Shown piece by piece: positions 13,057 to 40,601 of a stretch of DNA of 41,833 bases; within the stretch, counting starts at the first letter, position 1; each line of letters begins with the position of its first letter. The stretch lies in the IMG/VR virus record IMGVR_UViG_3300045988_100766. The stretch is one strand, 5' to 3'. This DNA is from a virus. The translations under genes were made by a program, and so were the position numbers. The notes under the pieces are model-generated. The model ran no database searches, had not been told where the DNA came from, and saw nothing but the letters and a program-made list of their open reading frames with translations.

Positions 13057-13385
13057 TTACGAGCAAACGCAACCCGCATCGCGGCAAGCCCGCGTACACC
13101 GATTATGTTAACTGGATCATGCGCTATTATGCGGCCAGTCCGGATACTGCGACCGCGAAAAACGATATCGAGCAGCGCAACTGGCAGGCGTGCAACCGTG
13201 TTCTGTCAGCGCTCCCCCTCGACGAGCGCCAAATCATGCTTGCCGTGTTTGCGTCCCCTGGCGACAACATGCAGCAGATTGTGGACAACGTTGCCGCCGA
13301 TCTGGATGTGCCGATCAACCGCGCCTGGCAGGTTGTGACCCAAACGACCAAACGAATTGCGAGAGAAAGGGGGTTGATTCCGTAA
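13053..13385 (+). CDS. Sigma-70 region-4-like HTH protein, putative late-gene transcriptional activator
   Basis: LPLDERQIMLAVF...DLDVPINRAWQVVTQTTKRIARE resembles sigma region 4. Lies directly upstream of terS. Confidence 0.55.
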   Translation: MITSKRNPHRGKPAYTDYVNWIMRYYAASPDTATAKNDIEQRNWQACNRVLSALPLDERQIMLAVFASPGDNMQQIVDNVAADLDVPINRAWQVVTQTTKRIARERGLIP

Positions 13386-14122
13386 TGGCTAAGGCAAATC
13401 CGCTTAAACGGCGCTTTCTTCGTACAGGGATGCCGCTATCTGAGATCAAACAACAAGTAGTCGCTCGTGGTACGCTGGTCACAATCGGCGATCTGCGCGC
13501 CTGCTGGTCGGCGAGCGAAACCGTGCCCAAGAACAAATACGATGCAATCATGGATACCCTGAACGAGATCGAGCACGGCAATATCATCGATGTAACGCCG
13601 GACATTAAAAAGGCCGCAACCCCGCAGGGCGGTATGGCCTCGATCACCGAGCACATGAGCGCAACCAATATCGAGATTGCCAACGCGGCTCATGCAGCCC
13701 TCTACTGGATGGATCGTCCCCGTGTGAAGACGGACGAAGAATGCGCAGCCCGTCTCGCGGAATTCTGGCAGTACACGGCGCAAACCGGCTCCTATCCAAC
13801 CGTCGAAAAGATGGCGCTTGCCCTGGGCGTAGATCGGAACACCCTCAACACCTGGAAGAATGGCGAGCTTGGAACATCCAAACGAAGGGTTGAGATGGTA
13901 CGAAAATCGTTCGGAATTATGGCAAGCATGTGTCAGGAATTGGCATCTACTGGCAAGATAAATGTCGTTGCTTGGATATTTACTGCGAAGAACTTCTTTG
14001 ATATGTCGGACAAACAGGAATTGGTGGTATCTCCCAACACCCCGCTAACCAACGTCCAAAGCGAGGAAGAATTGCGCAAGAAATATGCTGGGGCTATTGC
14101 AAACCTGTCGGACGAAAAATAA
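13385..14122 (+). CDS. terS: Terminase small subunit
   Basis: PTVEKMALALGVDRNTLNTWKNG...WIFTAKNFFDMSD matches the TerS HTH and C-terminal pattern. Sits at the head of the late region. Confidence 0.75.
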   Translation: MAKANPLKRRFLRTGMPLSEIKQQVVARGTLVTIGDLRACWSASETVPKNKYDAIMDTLNEIEHGNIIDVTPDIKKAATPQGGMASITEHMSATNIEIANAAHAALYWMDRPRVKTDEECAARLAEFWQYTAQTGSYPTVEKMALALGVDRNTLNTWKNGELGTSKRRVEMVRKSFGIMASMCQELASTGKINVVAWIFTAKNFFDMSDKQELVVSPNTPLTNVQSEEELRKKYAGAIANLSDEK

Positions 14123-14137
14123 AAACCAAATTCCATA

Positions 14138-14161
14138 GGCCGCCAAACAGGCGGTCTTTTT
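14138..14161 (+). terminator. Rho-independent terminator after terS
   Basis: GGCCGCC-AAACA-GGCGGTC stem-loop followed by TTTTT. Confidence 0.75.
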
Positions 14162-14172
14162 GATTTATGGGG

Positions 14173-14201
14173 TTGACAACGCATATGTTGTGTGATATGA
14201 T
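14173..14201 (+). promoter_or_regulatory. Sigma-70-type promoter, TTGACA-17-TATGAT with TG extended -10
   Basis: Read directly. Fires rightward into an AT-rich gap and then antisense to the FtsK-like gene. Confidence 0.55.
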
Positions 14202-14364
14202 AATATAGAATTATTATAATTAAAATTAAATATTAAATTGGGATAACTATATGTGTTCCTGCAAATGCCTTTATTTTGCCCTGTGACGGGCTTTTGCTTT
14301 GGGTATATATTTATATGGCTAACAGCGCAAAAACGACTGTGTGCAAACGTCGCGCGTCTGGTGG

Positions 14365-14408
14365 CAAAATAAACCCCCGTCAGGCGCTTTGCTTGCGTCT
14401 TGACGGGG
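14365..14408 (-). terminator. Terminator of the leftward island operon
   Basis: 8-bp stem CCCCGTCA/TGACGGGG followed on the minus strand by GTTTATTTTG, 18 nt past the stop. Confidence 0.65.
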
Positions 14409-14425
14409 TATCGTGGTGTTTGGGG

Positions 14426-15250
14426 TTATGGCACCATGACCAGCGCGGCAATGATAGCAACCAGGCCAAACGCCCATGCCGCGGCGGTTCTGGCTGCTGC
14501 ACGCTTCCGCGCCTTTTTGACGGCTTGGATCTGCGCTGACCAGCGGTCTGCCAGGTCGCGCGTCTCGGATTGGCTGTAATAATGCGGTTTGATTGGCTCC
14601 GGCTCGTTGCTCTGGGGCGTTACCATCAGGCCATAACCCCATTGCGGCAGCAGCTCGGCGCCGCTCTGATTGATGATGTTGCGGCTGTCCTGCGGAGTGG
14701 GCACGCGCAGGGCAATGCGGCAGTCTAAGTTAACCTTAATCGCGCCGGTGATGATGTCCCTGGTCGGACGCTGGGTGGCAAGGATCAAATGCACACGGGA
14801 CGAGCGGCCAAGCTGTGCAATGCGTTGGATGAGCGGCACAGCCTGTTTTTTGCTGGTGGTCATCAGGTCTGCGTACTCGTCGATAATCACATATACGTCC
14901 GGCTCGTCGCTGTCGTTGGCGTTGCGTGCCCTGGTGCGCCTGGTGCGCTCGTCGATCAGTTTGAGGGCGGCCGTTAGCTGCTCTATGATCTCGTCGGGCT
15001 CGGATGCGTAGCCGATGCAGTGCGGCACGCCGCGATATGGCCACAGCTCCGTGCGTTTGGGGTCGATCAGGATCAACTTGTGCTCGTCCGGATAGTCCAG
15101 CAGCGCTGTGTGGATGATGCTGCGCAGTAGTACGCTCTTGCCGCTGCCGGTGGTGCCTGCAATCAGGGTGTGGGTCTGCGCCAAAATGCGGCGCGCAAGG
15201 GTTGAGGCATCGCCTGACGGGCGCGTCCAAGTGGTTTTAATCGTTTTCAT
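14426..15250 (-). CDS. FtsK/SpoIIIE-family P-loop ATPase (motor core only) with C-terminal hydrophobic tail anchor
   Basis: Walker A GTTGSGKS, Walker B VYVIIDEYADL and LILATQRP. C-terminus is KKARKRAAARTAAAWAFGLVAIIAALVMVP. ATG 15250 follows SD AGGAGG. Confidence 0.8.
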   Translation of the reverse strand: MKTIKTTWTRPSGDASTLARRILAQTHTLIAGTTGSGKSVLLRSIIHTALLDYPDEHKLILIDPKRTELWPYRGVPHCIGYASEPDEIIEQLTAALKLIDERTRRTRARNANDSDEPDVYVIIDEYADLMTTSKKQAVPLIQRIAQLGRSSRVHLILATQRPTRDIITGAIKVNLDCRIALRVPTPQDSRNIINQSGAELLPQWGYGLMVTPQSNEPEPIKPHYYSQSETRDLADRWSAQIQAVKKARKRAAARTAAAWAFGLVAIIAALVMVP

Positions 15251-15281
15251 CTTTGCTGCCTCCTGGGCGGGCTGTGATCTG

Positions 15282-15719
15282 TTAGGCATGCGGGATATCG
15301 GCCTTGTGCCGGATGGCGTCGTACTGCGCCAGGATGGCGGCGTCATCATATCTGGCCGTGAGCCTTTGGATGGCGGGAAAGTTGCGGCGCTTAACGTCGG
15401 GGCCTACGGCGATCCACTGCCACGGGCCGCGAGACGTGGCAATGCTGCTGCCCTCCTGTATGTGCCAGACTGCCAGATGCAGCGCGATGTGGTACATGCC
15501 GTTTTGCATGTTAATGATATCGTGATAGCTCGTTGTCTTCTGCTCATAGCTGCGCTGCCAGGTGAGCGTGGCGGTTAGCGTGGTGCGCTCGTCAAGCTGG
15601 ATATCCTTCATGGCCCGCTTTTGCCCGCGAAAGATATAGTAGAGCTCGTCGAGGCGGAAACCGTTGTGCATCTTGGCGTTGATGGCGTTGATCTGTTCGC
15701 GGGTGATGGACTTAGACAT
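15282..15719 (-). CDS. Hypothetical 145-aa protein (island operon gene 3)
   Basis: ATG 15719 follows SD AGGAGGA. No family recognised. Confidence 0.6.
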   Translation of the reverse strand: MSKSITREQINAINAKMHNGFRLDELYYIFRGQKRAMKDIQLDERTTLTATLTWQRSYEQKTTSYHDIINMQNGMYHIALHLAVWHIQEGSSIATSRGPWQWIAVGPDVKRRNFPAIQRLTARYDDAAILAQYDAIRHKADIPHA

Positions 15720-15755
15720 TTTTACAATCCTCCTGGCCTTTGGCCTGTTTTTTAC

Positions 15756-15784
15756 TTGCCAGGCGGATTGCGCTATGCTATAAT
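15756..15784 (+). promoter_or_regulatory. Promoter TTGCCA-17-TATAAT driving an antisense small RNA
   Basis: Read directly in the intergenic gap of the leftward operon. Confidence 0.6.
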
Positions 15785-15790
15785 GTAGCT

Positions 15791-15862
15791 GCATCCTCTG
15801 GCTTTGGTTGGTTGGTGTGGCGCGTTGCCGTCTGCGATCTGGTCCATCGCAGGCGGCTTTTT
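15791..15862 (+). ncRNA. Candidate ~70-nt antisense sRNA
   Basis: Bounded by the promoter above and a 12-bp-stem terminator (15827-15857) with TTTTT only on the + strand. Confidence 0.5.
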
Positions 15863-15865
15863 CAA

Positions 15866-16066
15866 TCAGTAGCAGGGATTGGCCTTGCTTAGCTCCCATT
15901 CCTCGCCGTACTTGTCGGCGTGGGCCTGCTCGTAGGCCGAGAAAAACTCCTGATCGGTGCAGGGCGCGAGCTTGTCGTTGAGCTCCGCACAGATGTCATC
16001 ATCCATCAGGGCGACGGCGGCGTTGTAATCGATCTCGGTCCCGTTGGCGTTAATAACCTTTTTCAT
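15866..16066 (-). CDS. Small acidic protein (66 aa; MKKVINANGTEIDYNAAVALMDDD...)
   Basis: Internal ATG 16066 lies 7 nt after SD AAGGAGGA. The sequence type recurs on Firmicutes mobile elements (from memory; family name not recalled). Confidence 0.6.
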   Translation of the reverse strand: MKKVINANGTEIDYNAAVALMDDDICAELNDKLAPCTDQEFFSAYEQAHADKYGEEWELSKANPCY

Positions 16067-16264
16067 TTTTTTGTCCTCCTTATTGTTTGTCTGTTGTGGT
16101 AGTTTCCCTTTGCCCTGGCTGCGCTCTGCGTCCTGCGCAATCAGCATCCGGATGTAGGCAGATCGGCTCAGCCCGTAGGCTGCCGCGCGCTTGTCCAAGT
16201 AGTCTGACAGGTCGCGAGTTAGTACGACACAGGTTGTTGTCTTGTCTCCGTCTTTCTTCAGCAT
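15866..16264 (-). CDS. Ribbon-helix-helix (CopG/Arc-like) protein; reading frame continues without a stop into the 66-aa acidic protein (132-aa long form)
   Basis: ATG 16264 follows SD AAGGAGGG. TTCVVLTRDLSDYLDKRAAAYGLSRSAYIRMLI is an RHH pattern. The ORF track shows no stop before 15866. Confidence 0.6.
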   Translation of the reverse strand: MLKKDGDKTTTCVVLTRDLSDYLDKRAAAYGLSRSAYIRMLIAQDAERSQGKGKLPQQTNNKEDKKMKKVINANGTEIDYNAAVALMDDDICAELNDKLAPCTDQEFFSAYEQAHADKYGEEWELSKANPCY

Positions 16265-16311
16265 ATCAGCCCTCCTTGTTTTTGCTGTCGGTCCCCCCGC
16301 ACCGCACCTGT

Positions 16312-16341
16312 ATTGTACAACAGTTATATATCTTTTGTCAA
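16312..16341 (-). promoter_or_regulatory. Leftward promoter P2, TTGACA-18-TACAAT
   Basis: Read on the minus strand. Confidence 0.5.
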
Positions 16342-16381
16342 CACCTTTTTTGAAAGTTTTTTGATTATTTTTGTCCCTCAT

Positions 16382-16410
16382 ATATTACAGCTTGCCCAGA
16401 TGTGTGTCAA
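16382..16410 (-). promoter_or_regulatory. Leftward promoter P1, TTGACA-17-TAATAT; -35 lies inside the left inverted repeat
   Basis: Read on the minus strand. Confidence 0.6.
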
Positions 16411-16519
16411 TAGGGTTATGTGCCCTATTTGCGATATATCAAAATAGATTGCATAACCCGTGTGATACATAATAATGATAGATTCTGTCCTGTCATATGG
16501 GTATACCCTATTGACACAC
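16402..16519. repeat. 15-bp perfect inverted repeat GTGTGTCAATAGGGT (16402-16416 / 16505-19) with extra CCCTATT half-sites
   Basis: Read directly. The two copies are separated by an 88-bp AT-rich spacer. There is an internal dyad AATAGGG-N7-CCCTATT (16409-16429) and a palindrome GGGTATACCC (16499-16508). Confidence 0.85.
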
Positions 16520-16698
16520 TTTTGCATGCGTAGGCGCTGCGCGTTGGGCTTGTGCTGCTGGTAGTGCTATGTGGCGGCGCTTGCCATCCCCCCCGGTATC
16601 CTGCCAGGCAACCCACCCCAGGGGGAAAGCGGGGCCGGATGCTCCCCTTCGTAAGTCCCCCGAATTTCCGAAAAGCAAAAAAGACTATCACAATCATA

Positions 16699-16727
16699 TT
16701 GACATATCAAAAACATTGTGATATACT
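16699..16727 (+). promoter_or_regulatory. Promoter of the recombinase gene, TTGACA-17-TATACT with TG extended -10, bracketed by the 9-bp inverted repeat TATCACAAT/ATTGTGATA
   Basis: Read directly. Inverted repeat copies at 16686-16694 and 16715-16723. Confidence 0.65.
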
Positions 16728-16763
16728 CAAATAGAACTGAGACGGCAGGAGGTGCAGTACGGG

Positions 16764-17330
16764 ATGAAAGTCGGGTATATCCGAGTATCGACGGAAGAGC
16801 AGAACACGGCGCGTCAGGACATTGCGATGCGGAACCTGGGCGTAGAAAAGGTGTTTGTGGATAAATGCAGCGGGAAGAACACAGCCAGACCGGCGTTGAA
16901 GGAGATGCTGAACTTCGTCCGGGAGGGAGACACGGTGATCGTCAGCGAGATCAGCAGGTTTGCGAGGAACACGAAGGATCTGCTTGGGCTGATTGACCAG
17001 TTGAAGGAAAAGGGCGTCCAGTTTGAATCTCAGAAAGAGAAGATCGACACGAACACGCCGACGGGGCAATTTATGCTGACGGTGTTTGCGGCGGTCAGTC
17101 AGCTTGAGAGGGATTATATCCTGGCCAGACAACGGGAAGGCATAGAAGCCAGGCGCGCCAGTGTCGGGTATCACGGCAGGCAGCCGATACAGATTGATGC
17201 GGACGCTTTTAAGCGCGAATACGATTTGTGGAAGGCTGGGCAGATCACTGCGGTTACGGCCATCCATCACTTGGGCGTTAGCGCCAGCACATTCTATCGC
17301 CGGGTAAAGGATTACGAGGGGCAGTCCTGA
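16764..17330 (+). CDS. Small serine recombinase (resolvase/invertase type, N-terminal catalytic domain + C-terminal HTH)
   Basis: MKVGYIRVSTEEQNTARQ (catalytic Ser motif) and C-terminal HTH ITAVTAIHHLGVSASTFYRRV. Confidence 0.9.
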   Translation: MKVGYIRVSTEEQNTARQDIAMRNLGVEKVFVDKCSGKNTARPALKEMLNFVREGDTVIVSEISRFARNTKDLLGLIDQLKEKGVQFESQKEKIDTNTPTGQFMLTVFAAVSQLERDYILARQREGIEARRASVGYHGRQPIQIDADAFKREYDLWKAGQITAVTAIHHLGVSASTFYRRVKDYEGQS

Positions 17331-17345
17331 TTGGAACCCCGATTG

Positions 17346-17392
17346 AAAGAGCGCATGTTTGCGATTGTATGATTGCATTCGTGCGCTTTTTT
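17346..17392 (+). terminator. Hairpin/terminator upstream of terL (AGCGCA...TGCGCTTTTTT)
   Basis: 6-9 bp stem plus a T-run. A paralogous copy lies at 19108-19156. Confidence 0.5.
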
Positions 17393-17405
17393 ATTTGGGG
17401 GCACT

Positions 17406-19052
17406 ATGGATAAGCTGATTGAAGTAACGGATAAAAAGGTTTGCAAGCGTCCGGGAGATACGGGGGCGTGGGATGATCTGTTGGATGCGTTTGCAGCACT
17501 TGACCAGGGAAAGGCAACGCCGGAAATCCACGCGCTGAACAGGGAACGCCGTGGCATGATACAAGCGCAGATTATCAAGAATCAAAAGAATTTGGAGAAG
17601 ATGGGGGCTTTTCACACCCTGCTCAAGAAGTCGCTGCTGATTGATGCGCGTGTCGATTTTGATGCTTATATGCAATACGTCGAGTTTGAGCGTGATCCTG
17701 ATAAGCGGTTTTACCTGCCGAGACGGCAAGCGCTGCGTCCTGTTGTGGAAGCGCTGCAGAAGCTCGAAAACGGAGATTTGGATCTGTTGGCAATCAGCCT
17801 TCCTCCTGGCGTGGGCAAGACGACGGTTGCTATCTTTTTCCTGACCTGGCTTGCCGGGAACTATCCGGATATGCCTATCCTGGGCGGCAGTCACTCCGAT
17901 TCGATTATGCGCGGGGTATACGATGAGTGTCTGCGTATTATGCGCGGAAGCGGGGAATACATCTGGCACGAGGTCTTCCCGGAACTGCACATTAACAGCA
18001 CCAATGCCAATAACATGATGATCGACCTGGGCACGCCGAAACGCTTTGCCACGCTGGAATTTACGTCTGTCGGCGCAAAAAATGCCGGTCAGTTTCGAGC
18101 CGAAAAGCTGCTGTATTGCGATGACTTGTGCAGCGGCATTGAGGAAGCCATGAGCGCTGACCGGTTGGATAAGCTGTGGCAGTTGTATTCCACCGACTTG
18201 AAACAGCGCAAGATCGGAAACTGCGCGGAGTTGCACATTGCAACACGGTGGTCTGTCCGGGACGTGATCGGGCGCTTGGAGGATTTGTATGCGGGTGACC
18301 AGAAGAAGCAGTTTATCGCGCTGCCCGCCCTGAACGAGAACGACGAAAGCAATTTTGATTACGGCGCTACGGCTGCTGGATTTAGCACTGAAAAGTACCA
18401 TGATATCAAATATACCATGGATGAAGTAAGTTGGCGGGCGTTGTATATGAATCAGCCGATTGAGCGCGAAGGGTTGCTGTATCCAGAGGACGATCTTTTG
18501 CGTTACTGTGATCTACCTGCTGGGGAGCCTGATGCGATTATCGGAATTTGCGATACCAAGGACAAGGGCAAGGATTACGGCTTTATGCCTGCCGTGTATG
18601 CCTATGGCGACCAGTATTACCTTGTGGATTGTATCTGCGACAACTCGAACCCGGAGGTGGTAGAATCTCGAATGACGGACTTTTTGTACCGAAACAAGGT
18701 GCAACTGTGCCGTTTTGAATCCAATAGCGCTGGCCGGTCTATCGCGGAGAAGATCCAGAAAGAAGTGAAGGCGCTGGGAGGAATCACCAGCATTACCCAG
18801 CGATTTACAACCGAAAACAAGGAAACCAAGATCATTGTGAACTCGCCGTTTGTAAAGCAGCATGTTTTGTTTAAGAGCAAGGGGCTGTATGCGCCCAACA
18901 GCGACTATGGCCGAATGATGCGCATGCTTTGCTCCTACACCATGGCGGGAAAAAACAAAAACGACGACGTTCCGGACGGTATGGCGATGCTGGCTATGTA
19001 CTTGCAGTCCTTCACGAAGCAAAAAGTTGAAGTTTTTCGTCGCCCCTGTTGA
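17406..19052 (+). CDS. terL: Terminase large subunit
   Basis: Walker A PPGVGKTT and Walker B LLYCDDL, with a C-terminal nuclease-like half. Lies upstream of the portal gene. Confidence 0.85.
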   Translation: MDKLIEVTDKKVCKRPGDTGAWDDLLDAFAALDQGKATPEIHALNRERRGMIQAQIIKNQKNLEKMGAFHTLLKKSLLIDARVDFDAYMQYVEFERDPDKRFYLPRRQALRPVVEALQKLENGDLDLLAISLPPGVGKTTVAIFFLTWLAGNYPDMPILGGSHSDSIMRGVYDECLRIMRGSGEYIWHEVFPELHINSTNANNMMIDLGTPKRFATLEFTSVGAKNAGQFRAEKLLYCDDLCSGIEEAMSADRLDKLWQLYSTDLKQRKIGNCAELHIATRWSVRDVIGRLEDLYAGDQKKQFIALPALNENDESNFDYGATAAGFSTEKYHDIKYTMDEVSWRALYMNQPIEREGLLYPEDDLLRYCDLPAGEPDAIIGICDTKDKGKDYGFMPAVYAYGDQYYLVDCICDNSNPEVVESRMTDFLYRNKVQLCRFESNSAGRSIAEKIQKEVKALGGITSITQRFTTENKETKIIVNSPFVKQHVLFKSKGLYAPNSDYGRMMRMLCSYTMAGKNKNDDVPDGMAMLAMYLQSFTKQKVEVFRRPC

Positions 19053-38430: not shown

Positions 38431-38544
38431 ATGCCAAGGAGAAACTACCCGCCCAGGAGCCGAAAGCGCAAGACCACATTTGATCTGCCTCCGCAGGTAA
38501 TCGACCAGATTATCATGCGCAGGGACGAAGAACGTATACATTAG
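38431..38544 (+). CDS. 37-aa basic ORF
   Basis: SD GAAGGAGG at 38415-38422. Under 60 aa, so not in the ORF track. Confidence 0.35.
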   Translation: MPRRNYPPRSRKRKTTFDLPPQVIDQIIMRRDEERIH

Positions 38545-38640
38545 TATATGACAATACGCGCTGGAGTATGACAAAAAGTGAGGAGAATTTTCACCATTCC
38601 GTGCGGTTTATCCCCATCCAGCACCAGTTTGTCCAATCGC

Positions 38641-38670
38641 TTGACAAATTGGAACGGATGTTCGTATAAT
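38641..38670 (+). promoter_or_regulatory. Promoter TTGACA-18-TATAAT
   Basis: Read directly. Confidence 0.55.
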
Positions 38671-38771
38671 ACCAGCGGATGGTTGCTACAGCACTGCTCA
38701 ACATCTCCAATCGTCATGTTATAATTGTATCACTATTTACCAGATAATAAAATGTAAGGAGACATACCAAA

Positions 38772-38909
38772 ATGGACAAATACGAAATCAAGTACGGATG
38801 CACTTTCCTGACGAACGACATCAAACGTATGATGAAGAAAATGAACTACGCATCCTTGCGAATCGTGTGGCAGATGATGCGCGCCCTGACTGGCGATCCG
38901 AGAGGTTGA
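38772..38909 (+). CDS. 45-aa ORF (MDKYEIKYGCTFLTNDIKRMMKKM...)
   Basis: SD TAAGGAGA upstream; lies downstream of the promoter at 38641. Confidence 0.4.
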   Translation: MDKYEIKYGCTFLTNDIKRMMKKMNYASLRIVWQMMRALTGDPRG

Positions 38910-38948
38910 CATACGCTTAAAAAGGCTGGCAGATGCATGCTGGTCTTT

Positions 38949-39467
38949 TTATTTGCGGATTTCAACCGTCACGCGCCTTGACCCATTCTCTACGACAAAA
39001 GAAAGCGGTTTGTTGGATCGCTCAATCTCCGCAGGAACCTTGAATGTATATATGCCCGTGGTGGAGCCTAACGGGATAAGTTCTTTCATAGTAGCCAAAA
39101 AATTTCTGTAGTTTTTAAAAGTACTATTGTATGAGTATTCGTTGTCATACACGACGCTTGTGCTCCATGCTCTTTCAACGCTTGTAGTAAGCTTATGGCT
39201 TGTTGGATTGTGAACCGTAGCATTTACAACAACCCATCTATAACCATCTTCGGCGCGGCCTAAATCTTCAAGCATGTAGTCGGAAAAGTATACTTTGTTC
39301 ACTTTCATTTCTACTTCTCCCAAAGAGAAAGTTTGTCCTAAAGAAACCGACACCTTCTCGATATTGCTATCTCCGACAAAAATCTCTAATACAATACCCA
39401 AAGCAAACACGAAGCCTATAAGAATGATACAAAATACTGATAACTTGTTATGCTTCTTTTTCTTCAC
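38949..39467 (-). CDS. Membrane-anchored DUF4352-like protein
   Basis: N-terminal TM helix LSVFCIILIGFVFALGIVL followed by a beta-rich domain (GYRWVVVNATVHN). GTG start overlaps the upstream TGA. The segment is AT-rich. Confidence 0.6.
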   Translation of the reverse strand: MKKKKHNKLSVFCIILIGFVFALGIVLEIFVGDSNIEKVSVSLGQTFSLGEVEMKVNKVYFSDYMLEDLGRAEDGYRWVVVNATVHNPTSHKLTTSVERAWSTSVVYDNEYSYNSTFKNYRNFLATMKELIPLGSTTGIYTFKVPAEIERSNKPLSFVVENGSRRVTVEIRK

Positions 39468-39862
39468 TTTTGGCTTCCTCCATTCTTCATTGCCTGCGCG
39501 ACAGACATGATAGCGTGCTGTTGTTCTGCGTTAAGCGACAATATGCAAAGCAGCAAATCCCGCCTAAATCCATCAGGATCAGCCATTATTTTCCCCAAAG
39601 CGTAGGACATCTCCTCGTCTACGGCAGATTCTTCGCGCAACGCCGAAATCGGAACATCGAATATTTCAGCCATTTGCACAATATAGCCGGGACGAGGATA
39701 CTTCTTCCCGTGTGCCCAGTCGCAAACCGACGCCCCAGAAACGCCGAGGCTTTTGGCAATAGAGCTTTGCTTGATGCCACTTTCTTCCAAAAAATGCCTA
39801 AGATTGCGAGAAAACGTAATTAGCTGCGCTTTCGTGGCTTGCTCGTTTTTCCTCTGAGACAT
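39464..39862 (-). CDS. XRE-family HTH regulator
   Basis: LRHFLEESGIKQSSIAKSLGVSGASVCDWAHGKKYP; SD GAGGTG upstream. Confidence 0.75.
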   Translation of the reverse strand: MSQRKNEQATKAQLITFSRNLRHFLEESGIKQSSIAKSLGVSGASVCDWAHGKKYPRPGYIVQMAEIFDVPISALREESAVDEEMSYALGKIMADPDGFRRDLLLCILSLNAEQQHAIMSVAQAMKNGGSQK

Positions 39863-39939
39863 ATCATCACCTCATGACTTATTATACATGTGCGATGAAA
39901 GAAAATCAACAAAAAGCTAATAACTTTATCAAAAAGGCA

Positions 39940-39966
39940 TTGACATTTGCTTTGAGCTAATATAAT
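39940..39966 (+). promoter_or_regulatory. Promoter TTGACA-15-TATAAT (short spacer)
   Basis: Read directly. Confidence 0.4.
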
Positions 39967-39989
39967 AGGCGCTGTTAGGAGGTGAAGCA

Positions 39990-40163
39990 ATGGATCAACG
40001 CTTCAAAATAACAATCAAAGCAGCGCGTGTTAATCTCAATATTTCGCAGAAAAAGGCAGCGGAAATGCTTGGAATCAACCGTTCTACGCTCAGATGGGAA
40101 ATCCTTGATAAAATGACCAACTTGTACCAGGTTTCAATCGACAATCTTTTTTTGCAGAAATAA
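39990..40163 (+). CDS. 57-aa Cro-like HTH protein
   Basis: SD AGGAGGTG upstream. ISQKKAAEMLGINRSTLRWE is the HTH. Divergent from the XRE gene. Under 60 aa, so not in the ORF track. Confidence 0.55.
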   Translation: MDQRFKITIKAARVNLNISQKKAAEMLGINRSTLRWEILDKMTNLYQVSIDNLFLQK

Positions 40164-40241
40164 TCAGCTTAAAGCTAATTGATCGTGATAACAAAAAAAG
40201 GGGGGCGGCCAATGAAAGCAATCATCATTGCGCTGGTAGTT

Positions 40242-40601
40242 TTATTTTTTGGCTGCATCCGTGAAGATTCTTTCAAGCGTAGCCCATTCTTCCGGCGACA
40301 GCTTGGCCAGGGCGGAGATCAGGCGCGCCTTGAAGGCGTCGCTGCCGGTCAGCAGATCGCCCATAAACAAGGCAATTTCTTCGTTCTGTGTTTTCTGCAC
40401 ATAAGGCTCGCCCTGTCCAGTGCGGAGCCATTTTTCATTTACGCAAAATTCTTTACAGATAGAAAGAATAATCGCATCAGAGGGGACGCGGATTCCCTTT
40501 TCATAGGACGATATTGTGCTGTCCTTGATGCCGATTCTTTCTCCAAACTCCGCCTGCGTTAGACGCTGATCTTTTCTGATGCTTTTGATTCTTTCTTTCA
40601 T
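40242..40601 (-). CDS. CI-like XRE-family repressor
   Basis: MKERIKSIRKDQRLTQAEFGERIGIKDSTISSYEKG. Divergent from the rightward early promoter. Confidence 0.8.
   Translation of the reverse strand: MKERIKSIRKDQRLTQAEFGERIGIKDSTISSYEKGIRVPSDAIILSICKEFCVNEKWLRTGQGEPYVQKTQNEEIALFMGDLLTGSDAFKARLISALAKLSPEEWATLERIFTDAAKK

Follow-up and report, generated by a model that had tools for sequence, protein, structure and literature searches.

The terS-terL interval of a gut Clostridia phage lineage: probable accessory modules with a predicted RHH-AcrIC5 fusion and a short FtsK-like motor

Gene content of the terS-terL block

The DNA analyzed here, referred to as the window, is the 41,833-nucleotide virus record IMGVR_UViG_3300045988_100766, a 41.8-kb phage genome in which a block of 3.25 kb lies between terS (13385-14122) and terL (17406-19052). 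A first-pass annotation, made from the DNA alone, had described this block as an autonomous island, and the genes that it listed are all present: a ribbon-helix-helix (RHH) segment, an acidic protein of 66 amino acids (aa), a 145-aa protein and an FtsK-like ATPase on the minus strand, and a serine recombinase on the plus strand. The genes of the block and its boundary genes are as follows (ORF, open reading frame; 11/12 and the like give the match to the promoter consensus).

13385-14122, plus strand: terS, left boundary gene (weak direct matches to phrog_606, 3e-7, and PF16677, 1e-3)
14426-15250, minus strand: short FtsK-like ATPase, 274 aa (PF01580, E 3.8e-30; RecA-like motor domain only, plus a C-terminal tail anchor)
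15282-15719, minus strand: p145, cargo protein of 145 aa (no family match; 31 homologue clusters)
15756-15866, plus strand: candidate cis-antisense small RNA unit (promoter 15756-15784, 11/12, with TG; transcript of about 70 nt; terminator 15827-15857 with a 12-bp stem)
15866-16264, minus strand: predicted RHH-AcrIC5 fusion ORF, 132 aa (RHH segment 16067-16264, acidic 66-aa domain 15866-16066)
16764-17330, plus strand, with promoter from 16699: small serine recombinase, 188 aa (PF00239 3.5e-43, phrog_125 1e-60)
17406-19052, plus strand: terL, right boundary gene (phrog_38 2e-59)

The direct matches of terS were supplemented by an iterated profile, which joined it to the GP3_package-type terS of relatives. 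Technically the first question was whether the block is a genuine part of the genome, and a check for chimerism had been recommended. The window is a rotated form of ENA contig ERZ824620 NODE_800, and the gene arrangement is colinear in three independent assemblies (ENA ERZ824620, ENA ERZ27256385 and Logan ERR911984), of which the second ENA assembly and the Logan assembly come from other samples and match the arrangement of the block base for base. The two full-length contigs have different break points, as expected of a circular or circularly permuted genome. Since the three assemblies are colinear, a chimeric join is excluded and the junctions are real.

Conservation of the gene order across the lineage

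For quantification of how terS and terL are spaced in related phages, terS, terL, portal, FtsK and recombinase genes were located by tblastn and iterated profiles in 33 viral contigs whose TerL is 53-64% identical to that of the window. In all 15 contigs with both genes in view terS and terL are 3.0-5.4 kb apart, and in none do they abut, so the assumption that the two genes normally adjoin fails in this lineage. A second survey, which started from the FtsK-like protein, covered 82 viral loci and showed that the FtsK-bearing region recurs between terS and terL, answering a question that the first-pass annotation had left for a survey. Here terS is the next gene downstream of the short FtsK in 75 of the 78 loci with room for it, always convergent and with a median gap of 315 bp, while terL and portal lie on the other side of FtsK, divergent from it, in 54/54 loci. 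A serine recombinase stands in front of terL and co-oriented with it in 38 of these 54. The annotated contigs of distant relatives have the same gene order, one of them with FtsK and resolvase as direct divergent neighbours, and in GTDB (one genome per species) close FtsK homologues with this order occur only in Oscillospirales and other Clostridia, the matches at or below 42% identity being full-length chromosomal FtsK. It is clear from these data that the order terS, FtsK (opposite strand), cargo, recombinase, terL is a lineage-wide architecture. The rule that FtsK lies convergent with terS was not found described in the literature searched.

These results bear directly on the proposal of a recent insertion, in which the block would be an autonomous or hitch-hiking element mobilised by the serine recombinase, with two T-rich motifs as its boundaries. 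It draws on the recombinase at one edge, the transcription signals that the block has of its own, and the imperfect similar motifs at both edges, which are indeed present as quoted at 14157-14172 and 17387-17401. Both motifs are terminator T-tails followed by a G-run, and the G-run of the second pairs inside a hairpin of -40.5 kcal/mol and doubles as the Shine-Dalgarno sequence of terL; because they are terminator tails, they are no evidence of attachment sites. A site with terS and terL but without the block was not found in about 100 related loci, nor were flanking att repeats, which together would mark a mobile island or satellite. Furthermore, FtsK and the recombinase occur independently of each other, which leads us to reject a functional link between the two, and the recombinase half-sites described below are found only inside the block and not at its edges. 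Since terS and terL never abut in the lineage and no empty site was seen, the block is not an inserted island splitting the two genes, and we consider the insertion hypothesis extremely unlikely.

A number of further observations were made at the same loci. In L027, L028, L034/L097, L075 and L024 terL either is split into two matches with about 1 kb between them or exceeds the usual length by 230-330 residues, and the terL-portal spacer varies from 0.1 to 2.2 kb among relatives, a pattern suggestive of inteins or of homing endonucleases inserted in the packaging genes. In many relatives (L048-L088; e.g. L053 6622-6946) the gap of about 315 bp from the FtsK stop to the terS stop holds a conserved non-coding element with 2-3 copies of the repeat CAGAGAGCC, a hairpin that shows compensatory changes and has a T-run behind it, and, at the terS stop, CCTTTGTGCG repeats. 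This element had no Rfam match and could be a pac (packaging site) region or a small RNA; the corresponding gap of the window is AT-rich and without the CAGAGAGCC and CCTTTGTGCG repeats. A prophage with the order portal-terL ... FtsK-terS is present in the cultured Colidextribacter sp. OB.20 (NZ_QWKG01000034, L153), which is a possible experimental system.

A predicted RHH-AcrIC5 fusion

The RHH segment and the acidic protein lie in the same frame with no stop between them, as had been noticed before, and the gene callers used for the public assemblies read a single 132-aa ORF. The acidic 66-aa domain (pI 4.14; 14 D+E against 5 K+R) scored 85.3 bits against Pfam PF22147 (AcrIC5; cut-off 27) over profile positions 1-53 of 53, and matched the solved AcrIC5 structure PDB 7YHR with a phmmer value of 3.9e-9. 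When an AlphaFold (AF2) model of the 132-aa protein was searched with Foldseek it aligned to 7YHR with a TM-score of 0.84, an rmsd of 1.2 Å and 48% identity, and the next-best folds, for the N-terminal part, were the ribbon-helix-helix proteins CopG, Arc, ParD and VapB. The N-terminal domain also matched a VapB-type RHH at 6e-6, and the model places a disordered linker between the two domains. Judged by profile and modelled structure, the acidic protein is a member of the AcrIC5 anti-CRISPR family; the statement that the gene set corresponds to no named system therefore had to be abandoned.

Conservation of the fusion extends to at least 14 protein clusters. The linker residues K-E-D are encoded by AAGGAGGAC, 8 bases before the Met of the acidic domain, so that an internal AAGGAGG and the ATG at 16066 form a potential start for a free 66-aa AcrIC5-like protein. 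Because the AAGGAGGAC stretch is kept even where the RHH differs, such an internal start is likely. Orthologues of AcrIC5 are present in Firmicutes and Actinobacteria, and AcrIC5 blocks DNA binding by Cascade (PMC7913775; bioRxiv 10.1101/2025.06.06.658234). By analogy the acidic domain would act in the same way on type I-C Cascade, and the RHH part may serve as autoregulator of the operon, like Aca proteins. As is typical of acr-aca operons, a strong promoter and a small DNA-binding regulator encoded together with the acr are found, here in the form of three promoters and the RHH-type N-terminal domain.

Swappable cargo and a candidate antisense RNA

Upstream of FtsK the cargo is hypervariable: 187 protein clusters occupy the FtsK-recombinase interval of about 60 loci, and among 75 representative cargo families that were scanned nearly all were without a Pfam or PHROG function, the exceptions including single cases of LPD25 and EAD9, which are conflict-system domains. 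Two close relatives illustrate the exchange: L128 has an RHH alone, then p145, then a 109-aa gene, whereas in L132 an 83-aa gene comes first, followed by a different RHH fused to Acr and by p145. The p145 gene is a swappable cassette.

The p145 protein had no match in Pfam, PHROG, PADLOC or NCBIfam. Its AF2 model (pLDDT 82.5) gave no fold match in PDB or BFVD, and the attempt to derive a function from the fold was dropped. Homologues occur in other contexts (L130 6001-6438, 73% identical; L046 7001-7438, 53% identical), one located after a holin and before an integrase and the other in an early region near an LPD26-domain protein on an 81-kb contig; both are without the antisense RNA unit. Such positions in other phages led us to reject the idea that p145 is tied to FtsK.

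An antisense RNA unit inside the operon, reported by the first-pass annotation, is credible upstream of p145. Its fold has a z-score of -2.5, its promoter is invariant in two relatives, and two L128 substitutions in the terminator stem keep the pairing only on the plus strand, by means of G-U pairs.

Transcription signals and block edges

A consensus scan of the block returned 12 promoter-like sites, compared with 3.3 +/- 1.8 expected from shuffles. The predicted signals are listed here.

14137-14165, plus strand: terS intrinsic terminator (hairpin 14137-14157 plus T-run; 8-bp stem with 6 GC pairs; -16.6 kcal/mol, z -4.0)
14173-14210, plus strand: rightward promoter-like site (TTGACA-17-TATGAT with TG, 11/12; carries TTGTGATATNNTNAAATAGAA, which is conserved in L128 and L132)
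within 14173-14210, 16429-16449 and 16716-16736, plus strand: copies of the 21-nt motif TTGTGATATNNTNAAATAGAA
14365-14410, minus strand: terminator of the leftward operon (hairpin at about 14377-14410 plus UUUAUUUU; -21.3 kcal/mol, z -3.2; conserved in relatives)
16341-16312 (11/12), 16410-16382 (10/12) and 16496-16469, minus strand: three tandem leftward sigma-70-type promoters (consensus scan; conserved in L128 and L132)
16699-16727, plus strand: recombinase promoter (11/12)
17337-17401, plus strand: very stable hairpin/terminator adjoining the terL ribosome-binding site (-40.5 kcal/mol, z -8.4)

Both terminators and both leftward promoters described earlier were recovered, and the promoter at 16496-16469 is an addition. 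Since the block has its own host-type promoters and terminators and is transcribed against the late genes, expression independent of the late operon is likely, as had been proposed from the same kind of signals. The motif TTGTGATATNNTNAAATAGAA is found three times, always on the plus strand and only in the block (0 expected), and two of the copies overlap the -10 regions of rightward promoters, namely the site behind the terS terminator and the recombinase promoter. This sharing of TTGTGATATNNTNAAATAGAA suggests a common regulator for the promoters that bear it. The heptad TATCACA is concentrated in the block as well, with 4 of its 7 genome copies. A 39-aa hydrophobic ORF at 14253-14372 was rejected, its start codon not being conserved.

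Only a few bases separate the hairpin and T-run at 17337-17401 from the start codon of terL. Late transcripts can reach terL only by passing this hairpin or the terS terminator 3.2 kb upstream, which hints at antitermination.

A short FtsK-like motor next to terS

The FtsK-like protein matched the P. aeruginosa FtsK structure 2IUT and the NCBIfam FtsK model, both at 1e-35, and Walker A and B are invariant in 30 homologues. Only about 25 residues precede Walker A and about 35 follow the motor domain, and the N-terminal membrane domain, the alpha domain and the gamma (KOPS/XerD) domain are absent from it as judged by alignment and domain matches. The family is large (more than 6470 homologue clusters, mostly of 240-255 aa); no homologue above about 41% identity was found in phage isolates. 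In the FtsK-bearing loci the mean identity to the window proteins is 50% for FtsK, compared with 36.8% for TerL, 30.5% for TerS and 47.3% for portal. The last 19 residues of the window protein form a tail with a Kyte-Doolittle hydropathy of 2.34.

The family assignment bears on the suggestion that the operon is a conjugative module for DNA transfer, of the kil/kor or TraB type and controlled by a repressor. What speaks for it is the position of an FtsK-family ATPase beside a small repressor, together with weak matches to conjugation models. These matches cover the ATPase core only and are far below the cut-offs (TraB 28.7 bits against 800, TraD 28.9 against 366, TrwB_AAD_bind 16.3 against 20.5), the best matches of the protein are to chromosomal FtsK, and all its close homologues lie in phage packaging regions. 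No Pfam match to a relaxase, type IV secretion system or clt partner was found in the block or neighbouring genes, and clt-like repeats are missing. We therefore rejected a conjugative coupling protein or TraB, and a transfer module is scarcely credible.

The closest cellular relatives are chromosomal FtsK/SpoIIIE motors and the hosts are Oscillospirales and other Clostridia, and one could imagine sporulation-linked segregation, in which a SpoIIIE-like pump brings phage DNA or the host chromosome into the forespore. The listing of spoIIIE homologues (K03466) among the sporulation-gene homologues of human-gut phages (PMC10294663) agrees with this. The phage protein, however, is without the N-terminal septum-targeting membrane domain and the alpha and gamma domains, integration by the tyrosine integrase carries the phage into spores with the chromosome anyway, and the strict adjacency to terS is left unexplained. 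We find a role in sporulation improbable.

The third possibility is that the motor, tethered to the membrane and expressed from the prophage, acts at the envelope of lysogens to drive out or stall phage or plasmid DNA on its way in, and thus provides superinfection exclusion or defence. The opposite orientation of the operon with its own sigma-70-type promoters and terminators, the "moron" category given to the FtsK-like family in PHROG, the tail anchor of the window protein and the patchy presence of FtsK among the terL relatives all agree with such a role, as does the resemblance of the ATPase domain to the defence proteins SspH and mad8. In PADLOC the matches to SspH, mad8 and HerA cover the ATPase core only, the other four proteins of the block had no match, and the partner genes are absent, so a known defence system was rejected. 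The anchor is missing in most homologues (see below), FtsK, with its fixed place beside terS and a conservation exceeding that of TerL, is unlike defence cargo, which typically turns over fast, and it is co-transcribed with an anti-CRISPR that would be needed at entry. Exclusion or defence is thus a possible but rather doubtful explanation of the operon.

The serine recombinase and its candidate sites

The recombinase carries PF00239 over residues 3-132 with the motif YIRVSTEEQ, identifying an N-terminal serine catalytic domain, and is closest to Gin (2e-30), followed by gamma-delta resolvase (8e-23). The divergent gene has its own promoter, as had been stated. Because the phage has a separate tyrosine integrase, in addition to repressors, the serine recombinase is not the integrase. 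Two elements upstream of it require description.

16397-16524: inverted-repeat cluster (20-nt arms 16397-16416 and 16505-16524, 90%, flanking 88 nt; 26-bp palindrome 16491-16516)
16520-16690: GC-rich spacer of 170 bp, conserved in L128 and L132, that separates the inverted repeats from the recombinase promoter

The palindrome is built of 12-nt TGTCAWWWGGGT half-sites, of which the 41.8-kb genome has only three copies, all in this one cluster. A 12-2-12 palindrome and a 12-5-12 site lie about 85 bp apart and are candidate res-like subsites. In L128 and L132 the same change is present in both palindrome halves (TGTCA to TATCA) and travels with four recombinase substitutions. The cluster thus tracks the recombinase block and not the RHH, one of these two relatives having an unrelated RHH. 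The inverted repeats overlap the -35 boxes of the leftward promoters, yet are unchanged in L132 with its different RHH, and the view that they are RHH operators is weakened accordingly. No inverted copy of the segment between the 20-nt arms was seen at the assembly level in three assemblies or two relatives, and an invertible promoter is not supported at that level. The presence of a single half-site cluster argues against inversion or excision within the genome and fits recombination between genome copies.

The GC-rich spacer had no Rfam match and folding z-scores of +0.7 and +2.3, and was rejected as a structured RNA. In distant relatives only 40-50 nt separate a matching -35 motif, CCTATTGACA, from the start of the recombinase, for which reason the spacer may be an insertion.

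A model for the accessory region

Collectively, we think it probable that the block is a variable accessory region of separable modules, which a large lineage of temperate siphoviruses infecting gut Clostridia (Oscillospirales) carries throughout in the terS-terL interval. The biochemical activities of its parts and the timing of their expression we infer as follows. The leftward operon, with its three host-type promoters, would have the RHH domain fused in frame to the AcrIC5-family domain as its first product, followed by p145 with its cis-antisense small RNA as the exchangeable cassette. The short FtsK at the end of the operon would be a ring-forming ATPase dependent on double-stranded DNA, made early after DNA entry and at a low level in lysogens and acting on DNA at the membrane. 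Our favoured but tentative guess is a role in handling the phage's own DNA, whether incoming or terminally redundant, because the FtsK gene is always beside terS, where pac probably lies, and points away from there. Exclusion of competitor DNA is nearly as likely a task for the motor. The serine recombinase would recombine copies of its site on different genome units, leading to cyclisation of terminally redundant DNA or resolution of multimers, and would neither invert nor excise the block.

Several points weigh against this model of an accessory region with a motor for the phage's own DNA. The location of pac near terS and the direction of packaging are assumed by analogy with a P22-type terS. 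The transmembrane-grade tail of FtsK is found only in the window protein and an 89%-identical relative, whereas the other 28 of 30 aligned members have a short basic or aromatic tail, so that the membrane anchor noted by the first-pass annotation is real in this phage and not a feature of the family. Of the 15 terL relatives in which both terS and terL are in view, 13 have no FtsK, so FtsK is not essential to the lineage, and its identity does not co-vary with that of TerL (rho -0.33), which fits horizontal exchange as well as constraint and led us to reject vertical co-inheritance of the two. The short FtsK is, in other words, a strongly constrained yet dispensable gene with a fixed address next to terS. 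As to the recombinase, the half-sites coincide with the -35 boxes of the leftward promoters and for that reason may be operators rather than crossover sites; moreover, palindromes upstream of the recombinase are not enriched over shuffles in relatives, and a lineage-wide conserved palindrome was rejected. Finally, elsewhere the AcrIC5 domain occurs alone or behind many unrelated N-termini, and a role broader than anti-CRISPR is possible on account of these many partners.

A more specific version, which we rate as unlikely, makes the leftward operon an early operon of the "leading end", situated just past a P22-type pac and turned back in its direction. With most headfuls packaged in a series, the operon would then belong to the first DNA that enters the cell, its promoter ahead, and would deliver fast-evolving counter-defence cargo (here the anti-CRISPR) and the truncated FtsK motor. 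The motor would reel in the rest of the phage genome or clear proteins from it, after which the neighbouring recombinase would circularise the terminally redundant DNA. If true, this would be a new and widespread genome-entry strategy of gut Clostridia phages.

Significance and other cargo

The fusion is a candidate self-regulating anti-CRISPR, which would target type I-C systems in poorly studied gut Clostridia. In the fixed terS-terL slot thousands of gut phages keep small, rapidly exchanged genes, of which about 75 unannotated families were seen here, and the slot is therefore a good place to mine for counter-defence functions. The motor-only FtsK is better conserved than the terminase and nearly always tail-to-tail with terS, and working out its role would explain a common feature of human-gut phage genomes.

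Outside the block, the region at 38500-40500 has a GC content of 0.42, compared with 0.55-0.60 elsewhere, lies beside the integrase and repressor genes, and carries a DUF4352 protein (38949-39467) and a helix-turn-helix protein. It is a separate candidate for cargo expressed in lysogeny.

Comparison with known systems

The acidic domain resembles AcrIC5 of Pseudomonas delhiensis (7YHR) in fitting the whole Pfam model and the structure and in being acidic, and the operon resembles acr-aca operons in that strong promoters precede the acr and a small DNA-binding regulator accompanies it. As published, AcrIC5 has a helix-turn-helix protein of its own, Aca1, as separate partner (PMC7913775), whereas the putative regulator is here an RHH domain fused N-terminally in the same ORF. 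This phage may in addition, unlike the AcrIC5 system of Pseudomonas delhiensis, make fused and free Acr forms by means of the internal start. Self-regulating Acr-Aca fusions do exist, for example AcrIIA1.

Chromosomal FtsK/SpoIIIE proteins (e.g. 2IUT) share with the phage protein the RecA-like motor, the invariant Walker A and B, the ATQRPT motif and 38-41% identity. The phage form differs in its size of only about 245-274 aa, in being without the N-terminal membrane, alpha and gamma domains, in its short basic or aromatic tail or (here) tail anchor, and in being phage-encoded beside terS. It belongs with PHROG 1358, "FtsK/SpoIIIE-like protein", by a broad family match (1e-58) and by being phage-borne, while in cultured phages (Bacillus phages and Mycobacterium cluster J-like phages) the members of that family reach no more than 41% identity and lie in other gene contexts.

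With both Gin/Hin and gamma-delta/Sin the 188-aa recombinase has in common a catalytic domain followed by a short C-terminal DNA-binding tail, and inverted 12-nt half-sites upstream of its own gene. It differs from these enzymes in that no invertible segment was seen (three assemblies, two relatives), the central dinucleotide is palindromic (AT) and there is no clear three-subsite res. In phage P1, Cre and a single lox site near pac allow cyclisation of terminally redundant DNA and resolution of multimers. The present phage is similar in having a recombinase and a single putative site a few kb from the assumed packaging start, and differs in that the enzyme is a small serine and not a tyrosine recombinase, the site is a predicted one, and pac and the terminal redundancy are presumed.

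P2 and P4 genomes carry accessory and anti-defence hotspots at fixed positions. The block is like these hotspots in having fixed flanking genes and small, fast-exchanged cargo, some of it tied to conflict systems, and unlike them in its terS-terL location and in having a conserved FtsK-like gene as its resident anchor.

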